Part shown: positions 4,901 to 61,522 of the stretch, one piece after another
Layout of the letters: each line of letters opens with the position of its first letter
Position numbering within the stretch: position 1 is the stretch's first letter
Assembly (NCBI GenBank): GCA_018303655.1
Contig: JAGVXT010000012.1
Coordinates: 17,996 to 81,995 of the forward strand
Direction of reading: 5' to 3'
DNA from: Candidatus Woesearchaeota archaeon
Lineage (GTDB): Archaea > Nanobdellota > Nanobdellia > Woesearchaeales > GW2011-AR4
Length of the DNA: 64,000 bases
Translations under genes and position numbers: made by a program
The notes under the pieces: generated by a model
What the model was told of the DNA's origin: nothing
Database searches by the model: none
The model's input: only the letters and a program-made list of their open reading frames with translations

Positions 4901-5446
4901 ATGGGCAATGAAAGAATTTTAATTTTTCAGCCACATGATCTGGCAGGATACACTAATTCTCGAGAGGGTATCGAGGATTTTGTGGATAACGTGAGGCAAT
5001 GGCATCCCAACGATATTAAGGGGCAATTTCAATTATTCCCTTACGTGCTTCCAGACATAGGAAGAAAAGGCTGGAATTATGCAGGAATTGTTTACAGAAG
5101 AGAAATGAAAAACATTGATGAACATCCTTTAAATTTTATTCCAGGTCAACAAGTTGTTGAGAGCTTTCGCGATTTGGCATCAAGATTAGGCGCTGAAACT
5201 CGAGACTTGGAATTTTTTAAGGGCAGAATTGAAATACCAGGACCAACCCAAGAGCAATATTTAAGAACTATTGAAGCTGCTTACTCCCCTACACATGAGG
5301 AGTTTAAAGCTGCAGGATTAAGGAAGCCAAAACAGGTAACAAGATTTTTTTTGAATTTACATGATTCCCTAGTTGAACAAATTATTATGCCTTATCTTGA
5401 GTTGATGGGATTTAAAGGGGATATTAATGTTAAAAAAGTGGCCTGA
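4901..5446 (+). CDS. hypothetical protein
   Basis: 181-aa ORF in an operon-like array. No motif recognised. Confidence 0.5.
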   Translation: MGNERILIFQPHDLAGYTNSREGIEDFVDNVRQWHPNDIKGQFQLFPYVLPDIGRKGWNYAGIVYRREMKNIDEHPLNFIPGQQVVESFRDLASRLGAETRDLEFFKGRIEIPGPTQEQYLRTIEAAYSPTHEEFKAAGLRKPKQVTRFFLNLHDSLVEQIIMPYLELMGFKGDINVKKVA

Positions 5447-6133: not shown

Positions 6134-7237
6134 ATGAAGCAAAGCTACCAAGACAGAGAATCAAAAGCTGTTGATGCCATTAAAAAAAATATACCTTCTT
6201 CTTTGAAATCAGGCATGCTGCCCCAAAGCAAGGGCATGTTTGCCGAATTGTTTGAAAACAATGAAGCGTTTCCAAGGCATTACATTGCAACTGCAATTGA
6301 CAGCGTGGGCACAAAAATAATGATTGCAGAGGCTATGGAAAAATATGGCACAATTGGAATTGACTGCGTTGCAATGAGTGCAAACGACTTGGCAACTTTG
6401 GGCGCTGTAAATCCTTTTTTGTTCATGGACTGCATATCCTGCCAGCCTGAAATTCAGGAAAAGGCAATAACAGGCGACATAGTAAATGGGATGTCAAAAG
6501 GATTGGCGCAATGCGATGCGTCAAAAATACTGAGAAACTCGATAAGGGTAAATTTTGGCAAGGGCGAGACAGCCTCTGTTGACGAGCTTTTGAGCTCTCC
6601 AAAATCTGGTTACGGGTTTGAACTTGTCGGTTCAATGATTGGGTTTGTAGAGAAAAACAAGATAAAAAAGCAAAAAATAAAGCCCGGGCAAAAAATAATT
6701 GCATTAAAAAGCTCAGGGACTCATTCCAATGGGTATACTGATTTAAGGCATTGTTTATTGAAAGGAGATTTTGAAACAAGAACAGAATTCAAGAAAAAGT
6801 ATAAAGGCAGGTTTTCTCTGGACGACGGGTTTGACGGCTCGACAATTGGCAAAATTTTGCTTGCGCCAACCAAAATTTACATTGAAACAATGGCTAAAAT
6901 ATCAAAGAACTTTGATGTTGTTGGGTTTAACAATACCGGATATGGATTGAAGAATCTAAACAGGGCAAAAGAGAAAGTTGAATTCAGAATCAATGCTCCT
7001 TTAAAGCCGCAGCCAATCTTTGATTTGATGCAGAAGGAATCAAAGTTCAGCGATGAGAAGATGTACGGCACTTTTAATATGGGAATGGGTTTTTTTGTTG
7101 TATGTGGTAAAGATAATGTTGATGATATTTTAGATATTACAAAAAATGCTGATGTTGTTGGAGAAGTCAAGAAATCAAATAAAACAATGACCGTTCTGGA
7201 AAAAAATAATAAGAAGATTGCGTTTGAGGGGTATTGA
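6134..7237 (+). CDS. PurM-like (AIR synthase-related) protein
   Basis: 367 aa. AIDSVGTKIMIA, IGIDCVAMSANDL, GETA, SSGTHSNGYT, LLAPTKIY and TFNMGMGF align with PurM landmarks, but the protein is divergent. Confidence 0.7.
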   Translation: MKQSYQDRESKAVDAIKKNIPSSLKSGMLPQSKGMFAELFENNEAFPRHYIATAIDSVGTKIMIAEAMEKYGTIGIDCVAMSANDLATLGAVNPFLFMDCISCQPEIQEKAITGDIVNGMSKGLAQCDASKILRNSIRVNFGKGETASVDELLSSPKSGYGFELVGSMIGFVEKNKIKKQKIKPGQKIIALKSSGTHSNGYTDLRHCLLKGDFETRTEFKKKYKGRFSLDDGFDGSTIGKILLAPTKIYIETMAKISKNFDVVGFNNTGYGLKNLNRAKEKVEFRINAPLKPQPIFDLMQKESKFSDEKMYGTFNMGMGFFVVCGKDNVDDILDITKNADVVGEVKKSNKTMTVLEKNNKKIAFEGY

Positions 7238-15306: not shown

Positions 15307-17302
<1,996 letters not shown>

Positions 17303-26478: not shown

Positions 26479-26541
26479 GTGGAAGAGCGGCTTTTTGTAA
26501 AAAAGTTTCTGAAACTAGTTCGAAAACCCGCCGTAAATCCC
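26479..26541 (-). repeat. left inverted copy of the island-flanking element
   Basis: The reverse complement reads GGGATTTACG-GCGGGTTTTCGAA-CTAGTTTCAGAAAC...ACAAAAAGCCGCTCTTCCAC. The first 23 nt are identical to the split right copy at 31015-31055. Confidence 0.75.
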
Positions 26542-26591
26542 AGTTGTTGCTGTAGTATATCTGTAGCAAATAGCACTGGACATTTGTGGGC

Positions 26592-26603
26592 AAGGTTTAT
26601 AAA
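26592..26603 (+). promoter_or_regulatory. TATA-like box (AAGGTTTATAAA) and SD (AGGGAG, 26631-26636) for the restriction gene
   Basis: Both lie upstream of ATG 26641. Confidence 0.4.
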
Positions 26604-26640
26604 TCAGTTCCATATAATATATCAAAATAAAGGGAGTGAA

Positions 26641-27498
26641 ATGCCAAACAATGTTTTAAGAGGAATTTTGAATATAGCTTCATTTAAGAATAATAACCTT
26701 AAAAGCTATGCTTCTACTTACTTAAACAGGATTAACGCAGTTGGAGAGCAATTAGAATTTTATGTAAAAGACGCCATTGCAACATCTTTTAAGCTACCTT
26801 ATGATAAAAAGCCGGAAGTATATTCTAAAGTATTTTCTTGGCTCGGAACCCAAAACCATCCGCCAGACATTATCATAAAAAATGGTGATGCTTTTGAGAT
26901 TAAAAAGATTGAAACCATAAAAGGCTCACTTCAATTAAACAGCTCTTCTCCAAAAAATAAGCTTCTTGCCACCGATTCTAGGATAACGGCAGACTGCAAA
27001 AAATGCGATGGCGGAAATTGGAAAGAAAAAGACTTATTTTATGTGATTGGGAATGCAAAAGGTGGGGAAATAAGCTACTTATTTTTTGTGCATGGGGTTT
27101 GCTATGCTGCTGACCATAAAGTTTATGAAAAAATCCACGAGCCTATAAAAAAAGAAGTGGATTCCGTCCTTGATTCTCTTGGATTGGAAAAAGGCGAAAC
27201 TGTAGAATTGGGCAAAGTTAGGAGAGTTGACCCGCTTGGAATAACTGAATTGAGAATAAGGGGAATGTGGAGCATAGAAAATCCACTTAATGTTTATGAT
27301 GGATTGTGCGAGCTTGGAAAAAATAAATTTCATCTTTTTGCCTTATTGAGCAAAGAGAAATATCTTTCTTACTCTAAAGAAGACATCAAAGAATTAGAAT
27401 CCCATAAAGAAATTTCCGTTAAAGACGTAAAAATCAAAAGCCCAAATAACCCTGCTAATCTAATGGAGGCAAAGCTAATAGCTTTTGTAATAAAATGA
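26641..27498 (+). CDS. type II restriction endonuclease candidate (PD-(D/E)xK)
   Basis: 285 aa counted from MPNNVL. HPPDIIIKNGDAFEIKK fits PD...ExK. It overlaps the m5C methyltransferase start by 4 nt. The ORF-track N-terminal extension (26479-26640) runs through the repeat element. Confidence 0.65.
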   Translation: MPNNVLRGILNIASFKNNNLKSYASTYLNRINAVGEQLEFYVKDAIATSFKLPYDKKPEVYSKVFSWLGTQNHPPDIIIKNGDAFEIKKIETIKGSLQLNSSSPKNKLLATDSRITADCKKCDGGNWKEKDLFYVIGNAKGGEISYLFFVHGVCYAADHKVYEKIHEPIKKEVDSVLDSLGLEKGETVELGKVRRVDPLGITELRIRGMWSIENPLNVYDGLCELGKNKFHLFALLSKEKYLSYSKEDIKELESHKEISVKDVKIKSPNNPANLMEAKLIAFVIK

Positions 27499-28535
27499 AA
27501 ATTGCATCATTTTTTTCAGGAGCCGGAGGATTAGATTTAGGATTTACTAATGCAGGCTTTAAGCTAGCTTTTGCAAATGACAATTGGGAAGGCTGCTGGG
27601 AAACATTTGAGAAAAACCATAAAATACCTATTAATAAAAAATCAATTACTAAAATAAAGGCTGATGAAGTTCCTGATGTAGTAGGATTTGTTGGAGGGCC
27701 GCCTTGCCAAAGCTGGAGCCTTGCAGGAGCCATGAGGGGCATAAATGACCCAAGAGGCCAAGTTTTTTATGATTATGTTAGGCTTATTAAAGAAAAAAAG
27801 CCATCATTCTTTTTAGCTGAAAACGTTGCAGGGCTATTATCAAGTAGCCACTATCTCGAATTTATGAAAATTGTTAATGCTTTTAAGCAAATTGGGTATA
27901 ATGTTTCCTTTAAACTGCTTGATGCGAATGATTATGGAGTTCCGCAAGAGAGAAAAAGGGTAATTGTAGTGGGCTACCATGAGAAATTAGGAAAAAAATT
28001 TGAGTTTCCAAGCCCATTAAGCCAGAAGCCAGCACTAAAAGATGCAATCGCCGATTTGCCAGAGGCAATTCCAGCAAGCCATTACAATAAAACCAACGGA
28101 AAATTAGAAATTTATAACCATGAGTACATGAATGGGGGATTTTCTACTATTTATATGTCAAGAAATAGGGTACGAAGCTGGAATGAGCCTTCATTTACAA
28201 TTCAGGCAGGAGGTCGGCATGCTCCTTGCCACCCCAAAGCCCCAAAAATGAGGCTTATAGGGAAAGATAAAAGAGAATTTATTAAAGGCAAAGAGAATCT
28301 TTATAGAAGATTGTCAGTAAGGGAATGTGCCAGAATACAAACCTTTCCAGATGATTTTGTATTTTATTATAGCAATGTTGCAGATGGGTATAAGATGATA
28401 GGCAATGCCGTCCCTGTTAAATTGGCTGAAGCGCTGGCAAAGCAAATTATGAAAGACCTTAAAGGAATAAGACCACAAGAAAAATGGCAGACAAGTTCAG
28501 CAAAGCAAAAAGAAGCGCAATTATGTCCAGAATAA
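27495..28535 (+). CDS. DNA (cytosine-5)-methyltransferase, M.HaeIII-like (predicted GGCC)
   Basis: Carries FSGAGGLDLGF, GGPPCQSWS, ENV, QERKRV and GNAVPV. By my recollection the variable target-recognition region (NHEY..STI.MSRNRVR.WNEP.FT.QA.GR....HP.AP.M....GKE.LYRRL.VRECAR.Q.FPDDF) follows M.HaeIII closely. Confidence 0.85.
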   Translation: MKIASFFSGAGGLDLGFTNAGFKLAFANDNWEGCWETFEKNHKIPINKKSITKIKADEVPDVVGFVGGPPCQSWSLAGAMRGINDPRGQVFYDYVRLIKEKKPSFFLAENVAGLLSSSHYLEFMKIVNAFKQIGYNVSFKLLDANDYGVPQERKRVIVVGYHEKLGKKFEFPSPLSQKPALKDAIADLPEAIPASHYNKTNGKLEIYNHEYMNGGFSTIYMSRNRVRSWNEPSFTIQAGGRHAPCHPKAPKMRLIGKDKREFIKGKENLYRRLSVRECARIQTFPDDFVFYYSNVADGYKMIGNAVPVKLAEALAKQIMKDLKGIRPQEKWQTSSAKQKEAQLCPE

Positions 28536-28885
28536 GGTCTAAAAATACTTCTTTAGAGGTTGAGTTCAGAAAACTCCTTTGGAAAAATGGGCTTGGTCAC
28601 TATCGCATTCATTATAACTTGCCTGGAAAGCCCGATATTGTTTATGTTTCCAAAAAAATTGTAGTTTTTCTTGATGGCGACTTTTGGCATGGCTACAATT
28701 GGAAAAAACTAGGCAAAGTTCCGCCTAGAAAGTACTGGCAGAAGAAAATACAGAAAAACATCGACAGAGCGAAAAAGTATAATAAACTGCTGAGAAAAGA
28801 TGGGTGGAAAGTTTTACGATTTTGGGAGCATGATGTGAAGAAAAATTCAAATAGTTGTATTAAACATATAATAGATAGATATTAA
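28484..28885 (+). CDS. vsr: very-short-patch repair endonuclease
   Basis: RSAIMSRIRSKNTSLE and PDIVY....VVFLDGDFWHG. It overlaps the methyltransferase 3' end in another frame. Confidence 0.8.
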   Translation: MADKFSKAKRSAIMSRIRSKNTSLEVEFRKLLWKNGLGHYRIHYNLPGKPDIVYVSKKIVVFLDGDFWHGYNWKKLGKVPPRKYWQKKIQKNIDRAKKYNKLLRKDGWKVLRFWEHDVKKNSNSCIKHIIDRY

Positions 28886-42384: not shown

Positions 42385-43167
42385 ATGAAAGAAATGATTT
42401 GCCCGCATTGCAAAGAGAAGAACATTAAGAAAGATGGATTAAGAACAACAGAAAAAAGAGGAAAAATCCAGAGATATAGATGTAAAATTTGTAATTATCG
42501 ATTTGTCGTAGATGATGGCTTTTACAGAATGAGAAACAATGAAAAAATTATTACAATGTCAATTGATATGTATATTTCTAATTTATCAAGCAGAAAGATG
42601 AGAAATCAATTAAGCAGACATTTAAACACCAAAATAAGCCACATAAGTATTCTTGATTGGGTAAGAAGATATACTCTAAAAGTCAGTAAATTTGTTGATA
42701 AACTACAATACAATATGGGAAGTAGCTTTTATGCAGATGAAACTTTAATTGATTGTGAAGGTAGAGATGATAGATTTTGGTGTTGTCTTGATTGGGATAC
42801 TAGATTAATTACAGGAGTTCATTATAGTTTATCAGGTAATCCAATAGAAGCACAAAAATTCTTATTTAAGTCAATTCAGAAAGGAAAACCTAAATTCATT
42901 CAGACTGATGGCGGAGTTTTCTATCCGAGAGCATTTAGAAAGCTCTTCTATTCCAATAAGATTGGCAGTCTAACAGTTGAGCATAAAATACAAAATGCGA
43001 GTGTTACTAAAATCCACAATTACAGAATAGAAACAGTCTTTATGAAAATTAAAGACAGAGTAGATGATTTTCGAGGGATTAAGGCATTGTGGTCTGCTCC
43101 AATTTTAATGAATGCCTTAGTTATTCAACATAATAAGTTCCATGCAATAGAGCGGGACAGGAGTTAA
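42385..43167 (+). mobile_element. IS6-like DDE transposase gene (element ends not resolved)
   Basis: 260 aa. N-terminal zinc ribbon (CPHC...CKIC), then DDE candidates YADETLI, IQTDGG and NYRIETVFMKIKDR. GGTACC occurs three times in the 85 nt upstream. No convincing terminal inverted repeats seen. Confidence 0.65.
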
Positions 43168-44579: not shown

Positions 44580-44671
44580 TGGGGCTGCGGAGACTTTCGA
44601 AAATAATAAATTATTCGAACTCCGGTCACGAGGCCCCGAACCCCGGATACTGCCAACTGTACTACAGCCCC
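44580..44671 (-). tRNA. tRNA-Pro(CGG) with a 20-nt intron at 59/60 (T-loop)
   Basis: Acceptor GGGGCTG/CAGCCCC, anticodon arm CGGGG-TTCGGGG-CCTCG with no intron there, T-arm CGGAG-TTCGAA|intron 44594-44613|T-CTCCG. BHB register: TTCG pairs with CGAA, flanked by 3-nt bulges. Confidence 0.75.
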
Positions 44672-48323: not shown

Positions 48324-48412
48324 TGAGCCTGGGGGGATTCGAACCCCCACTGCCCGGTTTCATCTTATTGCAAAGCCGAAGCCGAGTCTGCTATCCATTA
48401 CAGCACAGGCCC
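48324..48412 (-). tRNA. tRNA-Arg(UCG) with a 17-nt canonical intron
   Basis: Acceptor GGGCCTG/CAGGCTC, anticodon stem CTCGG/CCGGG, loop CTTCGG|A (anticodon 48377-48379), intron 48359-48375, T-arm GGGGG-TTCGAAT-CCCCC. Confidence 0.8.
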
Positions 48413-51854: not shown

Positions 51855-51930
51855 AGCGATAAAAATCCAATAGTGAAAAGTTTTTAAGAATAAAATATGA
51901 TAAAAATAAAAGAACAATCGCTTTAATCAT

Positions 51931-51944
51931 AACCTTTAAATATA
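51931..51944 (+). promoter_or_regulatory. TATA box (AACCTTTAAATATA) for the tRNA-Leu/tRNA-Thr pair
   Basis: It ends 34 nt upstream of tRNA-Leu position 1. Confidence 0.45.
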
Positions 51945-51977
51945 GTTTTCTACTTCAAAAATATTGCCAGACAATTT

Positions 51978-52155
51978 GCGGGGGTAATTCCAAAGCATTA
52001 GTTTTGGAATCCTTAGAGCGAAGTCTGGCCAAACGCGCAGGACTTAAGGAGCACCTATTGTAAATAGGATTTCAGATATCCTGTTCCTTAGTGGATCCGA
52101 GGGTTCAAATTGCAGCAAGCGAGCATGCTTGCGCATGCATATCCCTTCCCCCGCA
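51978..52155 (+). tRNA. tRNA-Leu(UAA) with three introns (8/9, 37/38, 59/60)
   Basis: Exons assemble to an 86-nt class II tRNA: GCGGGGG-T-A-GCG-AAGTCTGGCCAAA-CGC-G-CAGGA-CTTAAGA-TCCTG-variable arm-GAGGG-TTCAAAT-CCCTT-CCCCCGC-A. Introns are about 51986-52016 (31 nt), 52049-52077 (29 nt) and 52110-52141 (32 nt). Each has a BHB-like register. Confidence 0.75.
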
Positions 52156-52162
52156 TTATTAT

Positions 52163-52247
52163 GCCTCTGTAGCATAGCAGCCATTGCGTTGCCTTGGTAA
52201 CATTTCTAAATAGGCAAAGGTCGGGGGTGCAAATCCCCTCAGAGGCT
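52163..52247 (+). tRNA. tRNA-Thr(GGU) with a 12-nt canonical intron
   Basis: Acceptor GCCTCTG/CAGAGGC, anticodon stem TTGCC/GGCAA, loop TTGGTA|A (anticodon 52196-52198), intron 52200-52211, T-arm GGGGG-TGCAAAT-CCCCT. Confidence 0.75.
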
Positions 52248-52307
52248 TAACCCAAATAAGTAACCATTCGAAACCTTTAAATACTTCGGTATATACTGTA
52301 CTTACAG

Positions 52308-55620: not shown

Positions 55621-55787
55621 GGGCCTGTGGTCTAGCGGCTATGACATCGCCTCGACATTTGCTTTAATTCAGCTATCGGCACGGCGAAGGTCACCAGTTC
55701 GAAATGTCGAGTCCCGAGATGCGAGGTTCGCGAGAAACTCGCTCACCAGCTACCGAGACTCGCAAACCGAAAATCTGGTCGGGCCCA
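55621..55787 (+). tRNA. tRNA-Val(GAC)-like with two introns (37/38 and 59/60) and an unusual C33
   Basis: Acceptor GGGCCTG/CGGGCCC, anticodon stem TCGCC/GGCGA, loop T-C-GAC-A|C, intron 1 at 55658-55681 (24 nt, good BHB). T-arm ACCAG-TTCGAA|intron 2 at 55704-55773 (70 nt)|T-CTGGT, with TTCG pairing to CGAA and 3-nt bulges. Confidence 0.65.
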
Positions 55788-58389: not shown

Positions 58390-58575
58390 TACGCCGCGAC
58401 TCGGACTTGCATGTGGCAAACAGTGACATGCGAGGCTCACTAGGGACTCGCTCGCCATTTACCCGCTTGCCACAATTTGAACCGAGAAACCCTTGCGGGA
58501 ACCAGCTTTCGCATTGCGGGGAATTCCCATGAATTCCAGCTCAAGGCTAGCGCAGTGCCAGATTGTGCCATCGCG
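58390..58575 (-). tRNA. tRNA-Ser(UGA) with two introns (37/38 and 59/60)
   Basis: Acceptor GCCGCGA/TCGCGGC plus G73, anticodon stem CTAGC/GCTGG, loop CTTGAG|A (anticodon 58539-58541), intron 1 at 58506-58537 (32 nt). Long variable arm (CCCgcaaGGG). T-arm CTCGG-TTCAAA|intron 2 at 58404-58473 (70 nt)|T-CCGAG. Confidence 0.75.
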
Positions 58576-58690
58576 GCAATAAGAAAAAGTTTTACTGGTT
58601 AATTTAAATTTATTGATTAATTTTTAATCAGAAAGCTAATCCCGTCAAAAACCTCTGGTTTTTGGGGTGCTCGAAAATCTTTAATTTTTG

Positions 58691-60353: not shown

Positions 60354-61010
60354 GTGATTCTAATGCACTACGAAATATACAAAATCAGAGGTAGAAAATA
60401 CAAATATGCTGTTGAAAATTATAGAGCTGGTAAGAAAGTGAAACACAAAAAAACCTATATCGGCGCTTTGGAGCCGATAAACAAAGCCAAAAGGAAAAAG
60501 GGTGGTGGTAGAAAACCAGTCCTCTTTGTCAGACAGATTACAGAGGAAGAAAGAGCAGAACTTATGAGAAACTCAAAGAGCCAAGATGCTTTCATAAGAG
60601 ACAGAGCAAGACTAATTCTGTTCTCTTGTCAAGCCTTAAGAGTCAAAGAAATAGCAGGCAACATGAGTTGCGGCATAAGAAAAGTCAGAAAAGCAATAAA
60701 AGACTTCAATAAAAAGGGGCTTGCTGCTTTGCAGAGAGGCAAAGCAAAGGGCGCTGTTCCTAAATTTGACAATGTGATAAAGAAAATGATTCTTATGCAC
60801 TTCTCACAAAAACCAAGCAAATTCAACTATCATTTCACAACATGGACACTGCCAAGATTTACAAATCACCTTATAGACTATAAAGTCGTTGAATCCATCA
60901 GCATAGAAAAGGTTAGGCAGATACTCGAAGAGGCTGGAGCAAGGTTGAAAAGAAGCAAGCGATGGCAATACTCTCCAGATAAAGATTTTGATAAAAAAAA
61001 CTTGCAATAG
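60354..61010 (+). CDS. IS630 transposase, N-terminal HTH part (orfA)
   Basis: 218 aa. HTH and winged-helix segments (RARLILFSCQALRVKEIAGNMSCGIRKVRKAIKDFNKKGLAAL). It ends just after the GATAAAAAAAAC A8 run. Confidence 0.75.
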   Translation: MILMHYEIYKIRGRKYKYAVENYRAGKKVKHKKTYIGALEPINKAKRKKGGGRKPVLFVRQITEEERAELMRNSKSQDAFIRDRARLILFSCQALRVKEIAGNMSCGIRKVRKAIKDFNKKGLAALQRGKAKGAVPKFDNVIKKMILMHFSQKPSKFNYHFTTWTLPRFTNHLIDYKVVESISIEKVRQILEEAGARLKRSKRWQYSPDKDFDKKNLQ

Positions 61011-61045
61011 AGCAAGCTATTGCGTATCTTCCGCAAAACAGCGTT

Positions 61046-61522
61046 TTGCTATCTTTTGACGAGAAAGGAAAGACTGCAATCAAAATCTATGGAGGGCAAA
61101 AGTATGTCTTTCGAGGGTACTATCACATACCTTATGGGCAGAAAATTAAAGGAATTTGTGATTTATTCATGGCCCGCAACATTCATACAGGCAAAAGGCA
61201 TTACGCCTTTTATGACTGGAAAAACAGCTTTATTGTCACTGAATTTCTTGAAAAGTTGTTGGAGATTTATCCAAACATGGACATTTACATAATTTGGGAC
61301 GGATGGAGCGCTCATAGAAGCGAGCATACAAAGATGTTTTTGGATTTACATCCGAGAATAAAGATACTGCCTTTGCCAACAAAGGCATCATGGCTAAATC
61401 ATGTTGAAAGGGATTTTAGCAGCATACAAAGATTTCTGCTGAATAATAGTAATTTTGAAAGTGTGGTTGAATTTATCCAAGCAACAGAAATATTTATTGA
61501 AAAGGAGCTATGTTCTAGTTGA
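61046..61522 (+). CDS. IS630 transposase, DDE_3 catalytic part (orfB, -1 frame)
   Basis: The frame is open from 60995 (KKLAIEQAIAYLPQNSVLLSFDEKG...). It carries LSFDEKG, IIWDGWSAHRS and LPTKASWLNHVERDF. Confidence 0.75.
   Translation: MLSFDEKGKTAIKIYGGQKYVFRGYYHIPYGQKIKGICDLFMARNIHTGKRHYAFYDWKNSFIVTEFLEKLLEIYPNMDIYIIWDGWSAHRSEHTKMFLDLHPRIKILPLPTKASWLNHVERDFSSIQRFLLNNSNFESVVEFIQATEIFIEKELCSS

Follow-up and report, generated by a model that had tools for sequence, protein, structure and literature searches.

The leucine tRNA gene and its surroundings

The stretch of DNA analyzed here (the window, 64,000 nt in all) comes from JGI metagenome assemblies and has a GC content of about 38%. The initial annotation had described it as a low-GC, DPANN-like context, and this description is borne out by the archaeal markers that it carries (TFB, the ribosomal proteins S3Ae, L31e and S19e, FttA and a proteasome subunit) and by three loci from Woesearchaeota MAGs (L022, L017 and L006) that share synteny with the window, with a nucleotide identity of 80-85%. 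At positions 51978-52155 of the forward strand we found a tRNA-Leu(UAA) gene of 178 nt interrupted by three introns. Exon 1 (51978-51985, +) contains G1 to U8, with U8 coming after the 5' strand of the acceptor stem, and is followed by intron 1 (51986-52016, +; 31 nt) at position 8/9, where the junction forms a strict 3-4-3 hBHBh' motif. Exon 2 (52017-52048, +) extends from A9 to G37 and includes the D arm, the 5' strand of the anticodon stem and the anticodon UAA. Intron 2 (52049-52077, +; 29 nt) occupies the canonical position 37/38. Exon 3 (52078-52109, +) runs from A38 to A59 and codes for the 3' strand of the anticodon stem, the long variable arm, the 5' strand of the T stem and most of the T loop, within which intron 3 (52110-52141, +; 32 nt) is inserted at position 59/60. 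Finally, exon 4 (52142-52155, +) provides U60 to A73, with the 3' strands of the T stem and acceptor stem and the discriminator A73; the CCA end is not encoded in the gene. All four exons are colinear within the 178 nt, so that this is neither a split nor a permuted tRNA gene.

Once the three segments are removed, the product has 86 nt and is called as tRNA-Leu(UAA) by ARAGORN. It folds into a class II cloverleaf with an acceptor stem of 7 bp, the T loop UUCAAAU, the discriminator A73 and a variable region of 15 nt containing a 3-bp stem. The gene length, the three segments and the class II product had all been proposed from the letters of the DNA, and the coordinates proved right to the base. 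The unspliced gene is not called by ARAGORN, with or without the intron mode, and gives no Rfam match either at the gathering score or at E<=10. At the latter threshold the Rfam tRNA model places no different, intron-free tRNA at the unspliced locus, which was the alternative that the initial annotation had asked to check. The unspliced RNA has a predicted folding energy of -68.3 kcal/mol (z = -5.0), better than 200 out of 200 shuffled sequences, and this fold retains the acceptor stem, the T stem and the three intron hairpins. An identical stretch of 401 nt (51900-52300) with the gene inside was found on contigs of two other metagenome samples, therefore the sequence of the gene is not an assembly error. 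Leucine is encoded by UUA in 24% of the cases in 31 ORFs of the window, which means that a tRNA with the UAA anticodon is needed.

A Pfam scan of 70 ORFs of this 64-kb window gave no tRNA_int_endo or RtcB domain. Among the other genes, DNA gyrase B occupies two overlapping ORFs. The ATPase and GyrB domains are encoded by the first (15340-16662, +), and Toprim and the C-terminus of GyrB by the second (16598-17302, +); the gene may be truly split, or the break may stem from a frameshift or from an error in the assembly. There is also a compact restriction-modification cassette (26479-28885, +) made of a NgoPII-type restriction endonuclease, a C5 cytosine methylase and a Vsr mismatch endonuclease. 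A transposase gene with an IS240-type DDE domain is located at 42385-43167 (+), and two transposase ORFs at 60354-61522 (+), one with an HTH and one with a DDE_3 domain, look like a single frameshift-split IS630-like transposase.

Bulge-helix-bulge motifs

We have examined the three junctions using the standard bulge-helix-bulge (BHB) geometry, in which the 5' exon and the intron each end in a 4-nt helix strand followed by two bulge bases. The rule was checked on the intron of the adjoining tRNA-Thr gene. All three junctions of the tRNA-Leu gene fit it, with two 3-nt bulges and a helix of four positions between them. The pairings and internal hairpins that the initial annotation gave for each intron, and the bulges that it gave for introns 1 and 3, were recovered, with the following details. 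In intron 1 the central helix is formed by G3-G6 (GGGG) with CCUU, with 4/4 pairs, two of them G-U; the bulges are GUA and AGA, and the inner hairpin has 10 bp. Its outer helix joins G1-C2 with G10-C11 and is lengthened by the leader, giving 5 bp plus 7 bp. Intron 2 has a central helix of C32-A35 (CUUA) with UCAG, where 3/4 positions pair and one is a U.C mismatch, bulges AGG and AUA, and an outer helix that is the anticodon stem itself plus one further pair; its inner part has 2 bp followed by a 5-bp hairpin. In intron 3, U54-A57 (UUCA) pairs with UGCA, again at 3/4 positions with a U.C mismatch, the bulges are AAU and UAU, the T stem serves as outer helix and the inner hairpin has 3+6 bp. 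On the sequence of this gene alone, introns 1 and 3 each allow a shift of one base in their boundaries (8/9 or 9/10 and 58/59 or 59/60, respectively) that leaves the product unchanged.

To put these motifs in perspective, we enumerated all BHB candidates under relaxed rules, spliced up to three of them at once and submitted the results to ARAGORN. The 178 nt contain 259 such candidates and dozens of combinations were accepted, so the relaxed BHB test is weak when taken alone. It follows that some other set of splice sites might be imagined to produce a different mature RNA, such as a tRNA-Leu(CAG) or one with another anticodon loop, and several of the accepted combinations are indeed Leu(CAG). 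We consider the chance of this to be close to negligible. No alternative product matches any orthologue, the combination described above has the best motif scores of all, and the sequence that it produces is found in relatives with different interruptions and is about 94% identical to that of uninterrupted orthologous genes. The reading as a tRNA-Leu(UAA) with introns at 8/9, 37/38 and 59/60 is the one followed below.

Conservation among orthologues

The species genomes of GTDB were scanned with a pattern derived from exon 2, which gave 38 loci, and JGI metagenomes contributed 42 more. Four of them (L040, L050, L060 and L076) were truncated or badly aligned and were left out of the counts. The record titles of most GTDB loci refer to MAGs of Woesearchaeota or Nanoarchaeota; in 16 cases the title is "uncultured Methanosarcinales archaeon". 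These 16 records are "binchicken"/SRP co-assembly MAGs (for example L005, L007, L012, L013, L019, L021 and L025), and their tRNA-Leu genes and flanks resemble those of Woesearchaeota and Nanoarchaeota MAGs. Their titles may be placeholders or mislabels.

The spliced product of 86 nt is identical in the window gene and in the three syntenic loci. Two of these, L022 and L017, share the three intron sites of the window, and L006 has instead introns at 37/38 and 51/52, so that the same tRNA is obtained from two different sets of introns. Uninterrupted orthologues also exist, and those of L034, L028 and L005 score 60-62 bits with the Rfam tRNA model. In an alignment of three syntenic species the exons are 100% identical, and the introns vary in sequence and in length. 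Four substitutions fall in intron 1; L017 has another sequence, also complementary, in place of the hairpin stem of intron 2, and in L022 intron 3 is 15 nt shorter. We have also analyzed the cloverleaf of 30 distinct spliced orthologues. In this set 99.9% of the cells were paired and 11 pairs had changed on both sides, compared to at most 4 in slid controls. The covariation is located in the acceptor, variable and T stems; the D arm and the anticodon arm were fixed by the search pattern and carry no information in this test.

Among 61 distinct orthologues, seven genes had no intron, 22 had one, 20 had two, 11 had three and one had four. Only four sites were used: 37/38 (53 genes with an intron), 8/9 (20 genes), 59/60 (17 genes) and 51/52 (nine genes). 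The positions and BHB-like registers initially proposed from one gene are borne out by this comparison. The pairs of the central helix are kept in 195 out of 212 cases at 37/38, 79 out of 80 at 8/9, 64 out of 68 at 59/60 and 36 out of 36 at 51/52, that is, between 92 and 100%, while the sequences of the introns diverge. The register of each gene was taken as the best BHB within +/-5 nt, which somewhat favours the motif, and the sequences are not phylogenetically independent. When the 3' strand was slid by 1-3 bases in the genome set, pairing fell to 23-60%, save at 8/9, where the run of G permits slippage and 91% of the pairs persist at slide -1. At the 59/60 site we detected a compensatory substitution, from A57:U to G57:C. 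The identical product obtained from two intron sets, the uninterrupted orthologues and the conservation of the registers, together with the covariation of the cloverleaf and the folding of the unspliced RNA, indicate that the introns are real rather than chance motifs.

The introns at 51/52 never have the outer helix and are therefore of the relaxed HBh' type. This suggests, as far as can be judged from the motifs, that the lineage has an endonuclease of broad specificity. The single gene with four apparent introns is that of L025 (CAZIEE010000050.1, approximately 2190-2395). They would be located at 8/9 (38 nt), 37/38 (11 nt), 51/52 (39 nt) and 59/60 (32 nt), and removing them gives an 86-nt tRNA-Leu(UAA). 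A literature search on four introns in archaeal tRNAs found nothing relevant.

The 5' leader and the upstream region

A TATA-box-like element (TTTAAATA) can be read at 51935-51942 (+), and neither it nor the leader varies among the three syntenic species. TTTAAA-like motifs are present 30-45 nt upstream in most orthologues. The element probably acts as a promoter, and from the usual archaeal spacing transcription would start near G51966. This is the first base of a helix between the 5' leader (51966-51977, +) and the region of the D arm. The leader sequence GCCAGAC (51966-51972) is complementary to G15-C20 of the D loop, and G10-A14 is paired with UUU (51975-51977), G1 and C2. Altogether these pairings make an outer helix (h) of 12 bp for the BHB of intron 1.

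With the 12-nt leader included, the minimum free energy fold of the precursor (-68.5 kcal/mol) contains the 12-bp helix and a BHB-like junction at intron 1, and it is level with the fold that keeps the acceptor stem (-68.4 kcal/mol). The fold with the leader helix was the best for transcripts of all lengths between 60 and 178 nt. Imposing the strict 3-4-3 register at intron 1 costs 1.1 kcal/mol more.

Counting as a leader helix any with 6 bp or more near the start of the gene, we found it in 18 out of 19 genes with an intron at 8/9 versus 10 out of 40 without it (Fisher p = 4e-7, a value uncorrected for phylogeny). In the nineteenth gene with the intron the helix is located one base further off. 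The base of the leader opposite to position 20 covaries with it, being G when the tRNA has C20 and A (or G, as a G.U pair) when it has U20. The ten orthologues that lack the 8/9 intron and keep a leader of the CCAGAC type include L021, L023, L032, L035, L037, L049, L056 and L063. In them the helix may be a relic, left when the intron was recently and precisely lost, or the leader may serve some other function as well.

Other tRNA genes in the window

We identified eight tRNA genes in the window; introns were found in seven of them, and four have one at 59/60. Only 7 nt downstream of the tRNA-Leu lies a tRNA-Thr(GGU) gene (52163-52247, +), detected by the Rfam tRNA model (50.3 bits) and by ARAGORN, with a canonical intron of 12 nt (52200-52211). 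The short spacer suggests that both genes are probably co-transcribed. The T loop of this tRNA-Thr is UGCAAAU, with a G at position 55, a position that is a near-invariant U in tRNAs (pseudouridine 55); the same G is seen in L005, L017, L022 and L033. Three more genes gave no match with either ARAGORN or Rfam. These are a tRNA-Pro(CGG) at 44580-44671 (-) with a 20-nt intron at 59/60 (44594-44613), a tRNA-Val(GAC)-like gene at 55621-55787 (+) with introns at 37/38 (55658-55681) and 59/60 (55704-55773), and a tRNA-Ser(UGA) with G73 at 58392-58577 (-), also with introns at 37/38 (58508-58539) and 59/60 (58406-58475). The anticodon loop of the spliced Val-like tRNA is UCGACAC. Its position 33 is thus a C in place of the near-universal U33, and the gene may be atypical or a pseudogene. 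Another gene at 48324-48412 (-) is reported by ARAGORN as "tRNA-???" or tRNA-SeC(UCA) and scores 49 bits with the Rfam tRNA model; by hand it reads as a tRNA-Arg(UCG) with a canonical intron of 17 nt. A search of the window for tRNA genes with an intron in the T stem (51/52) returned only three false positives inside coding regions.

The frequency of interrupted genes bears on the possibility that the tRNA-Leu gene is a decaying pseudogene, whose insertions are not removed while an uninterrupted copy elsewhere does the work. The 64 kb in view leave room in the genome for a second tRNA-Leu(UAA), and standard finders do not see the gene. Even so, we judge this to be very unlikely. Interruption is the norm among the tRNA genes of the window, the exons are fully conserved among three species whose flanks are only 80-85% identical, and the promoter-like element and the leader are conserved as well. 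Besides, the insertions are in BHB register in every orthologue, and 11 of the 61 distinct genes have three introns at the same hot spots.

The tRNA-Thr genes of L017 (approximately 5075-5230) and L022 (approximately 6790-6940) have an extra intron of 32-33 nt at 59/60 that is missing from the tRNA-Thr of the window. This intron is significantly similar to intron 3 of the tRNA-Leu of the window (z = 6-7 against shuffled sequences), and they share the ends AAGCGAGC...CGCA.UGCA. Similar ends (TTGYRGCAAGCG...CAYATGCA) can be seen by eye in the 59/60 intron of the tRNA-Ser of the window, although this similarity was below the cut-off of z >= 3.5. These data suggest that one intron family is spreading between the T loops of different tRNA genes. 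In four loci (L013, L026, L027 and L034) a direct repeat of the 3' end of the tRNA, from about position 52-60 into the trailer, is found 50-100 nt downstream of the intact gene. It looks like an integration scar at the T-loop region, the same place as the 59/60 hot spot.

Both the repeats and the similarity of intron 3 to an intron of the neighbouring tRNA gene in relatives point to mobility at the DNA level, and could be taken to mean that the insertions are self-splicing introns or the scars of small mobile elements, rather than introns spliced by an endonuclease. Group I and group II introns have a catalytic core of hundreds of nucleotides, and insertions of 29-32 nt are far too short for either. 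They match no Rfam family at E<=10, and all of them have the BHB geometry, a known substrate of EndA. An origin by DNA mobility is moreover compatible with BHB splicing and no substitute for it. We therefore regard this explanation as extremely unlikely, and retain endonuclease splicing as the means of removal.

Discussion

Our analysis indicates that the locus is very probably a functional tRNA-Leu(UAA) gene with three introns in a Woesearchaeota-like DPANN archaeon, in which, to judge from the sequence, BHB introns would be spliced by the archaeal tRNA splicing endonuclease (EndA). The enzymes involved and the order of the steps we infer as follows. The precursor would be of about 190 nt or longer, probably shared with the tRNA-Thr, and each of the introns at 8/9, 37/38 and 59/60 would fold with the flanking exon into a BHB. 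EndA would cut within both 3-nt bulges and a ligase of the RtcB type would join the exons. Trimming of the ends and addition of CCA would then give the 86-nt class II tRNA that reads UUA. The BHB at 8/9 uses the 5' strand of the acceptor stem and hence competes with the cloverleaf. In this situation the leader helix could make the 8/9 junction a good substrate and tether the 8 nt of exon 1 for ligation; if it holds exon 1 in this way, intron 1 would have to be removed before the leader is cleaved.

There are similar situations in other archaea. Genes with several introns in one tRNA have been described in the Thermoproteales (Pyrobaculum, Thermofilum, Caldivirga) (Sugahara 2008; Fujishima 2010; reviewed in PMC4090602, PMC4033280), with up to three per gene and at non-canonical sites that include 59/60 (PMC4090602, PMC4033280, PMC8450103). 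Three is the maximum number of introns per archaeal tRNA gene stated in the reviews, and position 8/9 is absent from the list of common intron sites given in one of them (PMC4090602). The gene described here resembles those of the Thermoproteales in having up to three BHB introns, in the 59/60 site, in being invisible to standard tRNA finders and in the presence of similar introns in different tRNAs, which suggests transposition. However, the Thermoproteales are hyperthermophilic crenarchaea and the host here is a mesophilic, low-GC DPANN archaeon, in which the introns of this tRNA-Leu are confined to 8/9, 37/38, 51/52 and 59/60. The endonucleases differ too, being (alpha-beta)2 with an L1 loop in the Thermoproteales, whereas alpha4 with an L3 loop has been reported for DPANN lineages (PMC5829648). 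The initial annotation had put forward epsilon2 or an alpha-beta heterotetramer as the type of endonuclease; the survey favours the alpha4 form with its additional L3 loop for DPANN as a whole (PMC5829648).

Closer precedents are found within DPANN. According to the parts of the 2011 study of ARMAN-2 (Ca. Micrarchaeum) that we consulted, 56% of its tRNA genes are disrupted and its epsilon2 endonuclease cuts a 59/60 intron in vitro (PMC3239211). The same parts show a DPANN host with introns at 59/60, as here, and also a gene with two introns in the T loop. ARMAN-2 nevertheless belongs to a different DPANN phylum, and its type of endonuclease, epsilon2, is known only from Micrarchaeota. A three-intron gene, an 8/9 intron or a helix built by the leader did not appear in the sections consulted (PMC3239211). 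The sections consulted of Kaneta et al. (2018) describe a survey of DPANN that includes the Woesearchaeota genome RBG_13_36_6, and thus shares the broad lineage of the gene described here, as well as Pacearchaeota RBG_13_33_26 (PMC5829648). They report that a higher disruption of tRNA genes in multiple DPANN lineages goes together with a loop-bearing alpha4 EndA, and that gaps in the tRNA sets of some new DPANN genomes are probably due to disrupted genes that went unnoticed (PMC5829648). The results appear in those sections as summary fractions, among which we did not come across this tRNA-Leu gene, a leader helix or the turnover between species (PMC5829648).

A parallel for the leader helix is provided by the split tRNA genes of Nanoarchaeum equitans (PMC4090602, PMC4033280). 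In both cases a complementary flank outside the tRNA builds a helix beside the BHB. The flanks of N. equitans hold the tRNA pieces for the endonuclease and the ligase, and the leader is proposed to hold the 8-nt exon 1 in the same manner. The difference is that here the exons are colinear in one transcript (in cis) and the leader pairs with the region of the D arm, while in N. equitans the helix joins the leader and the trailer of two transcripts.

The initial annotation had seen the interest of the gene in the presence of multi-intron tRNAs in a DPANN-like context. The context is correct, but its significance was overstated, as multi-intron tRNA genes with broad-specificity endonucleases have already been published for DPANN in 2011 (PMC3239211) and 2018 (PMC5829648). 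The gene leaves the general understanding of the function of archaeal tRNA introns unchanged. The new details are modestly interesting: the helix built by the leader, the fast turnover at four hot spots, the candidate four-intron orthologue and the related introns in neighbouring genes. It is quite possible, although we would stop short of calling it probable, that they reflect an unusually active tRNA-intron system in Woesearchaeota-like archaea, with turnover at hot spots, a four-intron gene, a shared intron family and an 8/9 intron dependent on the leader. If this were true, introns would be gained and lost at 8/9, 37/38, 51/52 and 59/60 between syntenic species, and the four introns of L025 would exceed the maximum of three found in the literature. 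The related introns in the T loops of neighbouring tRNAs would be evidence for intron transposition. The leader-dependent 8/9 intron would be a counterpart in cis of the pairing of split tRNAs, and the helix predicts the order of splicing with respect to 5' processing, with splicing coming before 5' maturation.

There are also consequences for the study of these genomes. Standard annotation overlooks no fewer than four tRNA genes of the window, the tRNA-Leu(UAA) among them. When interrupted genes are missed, genomes of this lineage seem to be without essential tRNAs, such as the one that reads UUA, and this distorts the estimates of completeness and the claims of tRNA loss in DPANN archaea. 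The 61 orthologues in turn capture, at closely spaced points, how introns are gained and lost at fixed hot spots, a kind of material that reviews have asked for (PMC4033280).
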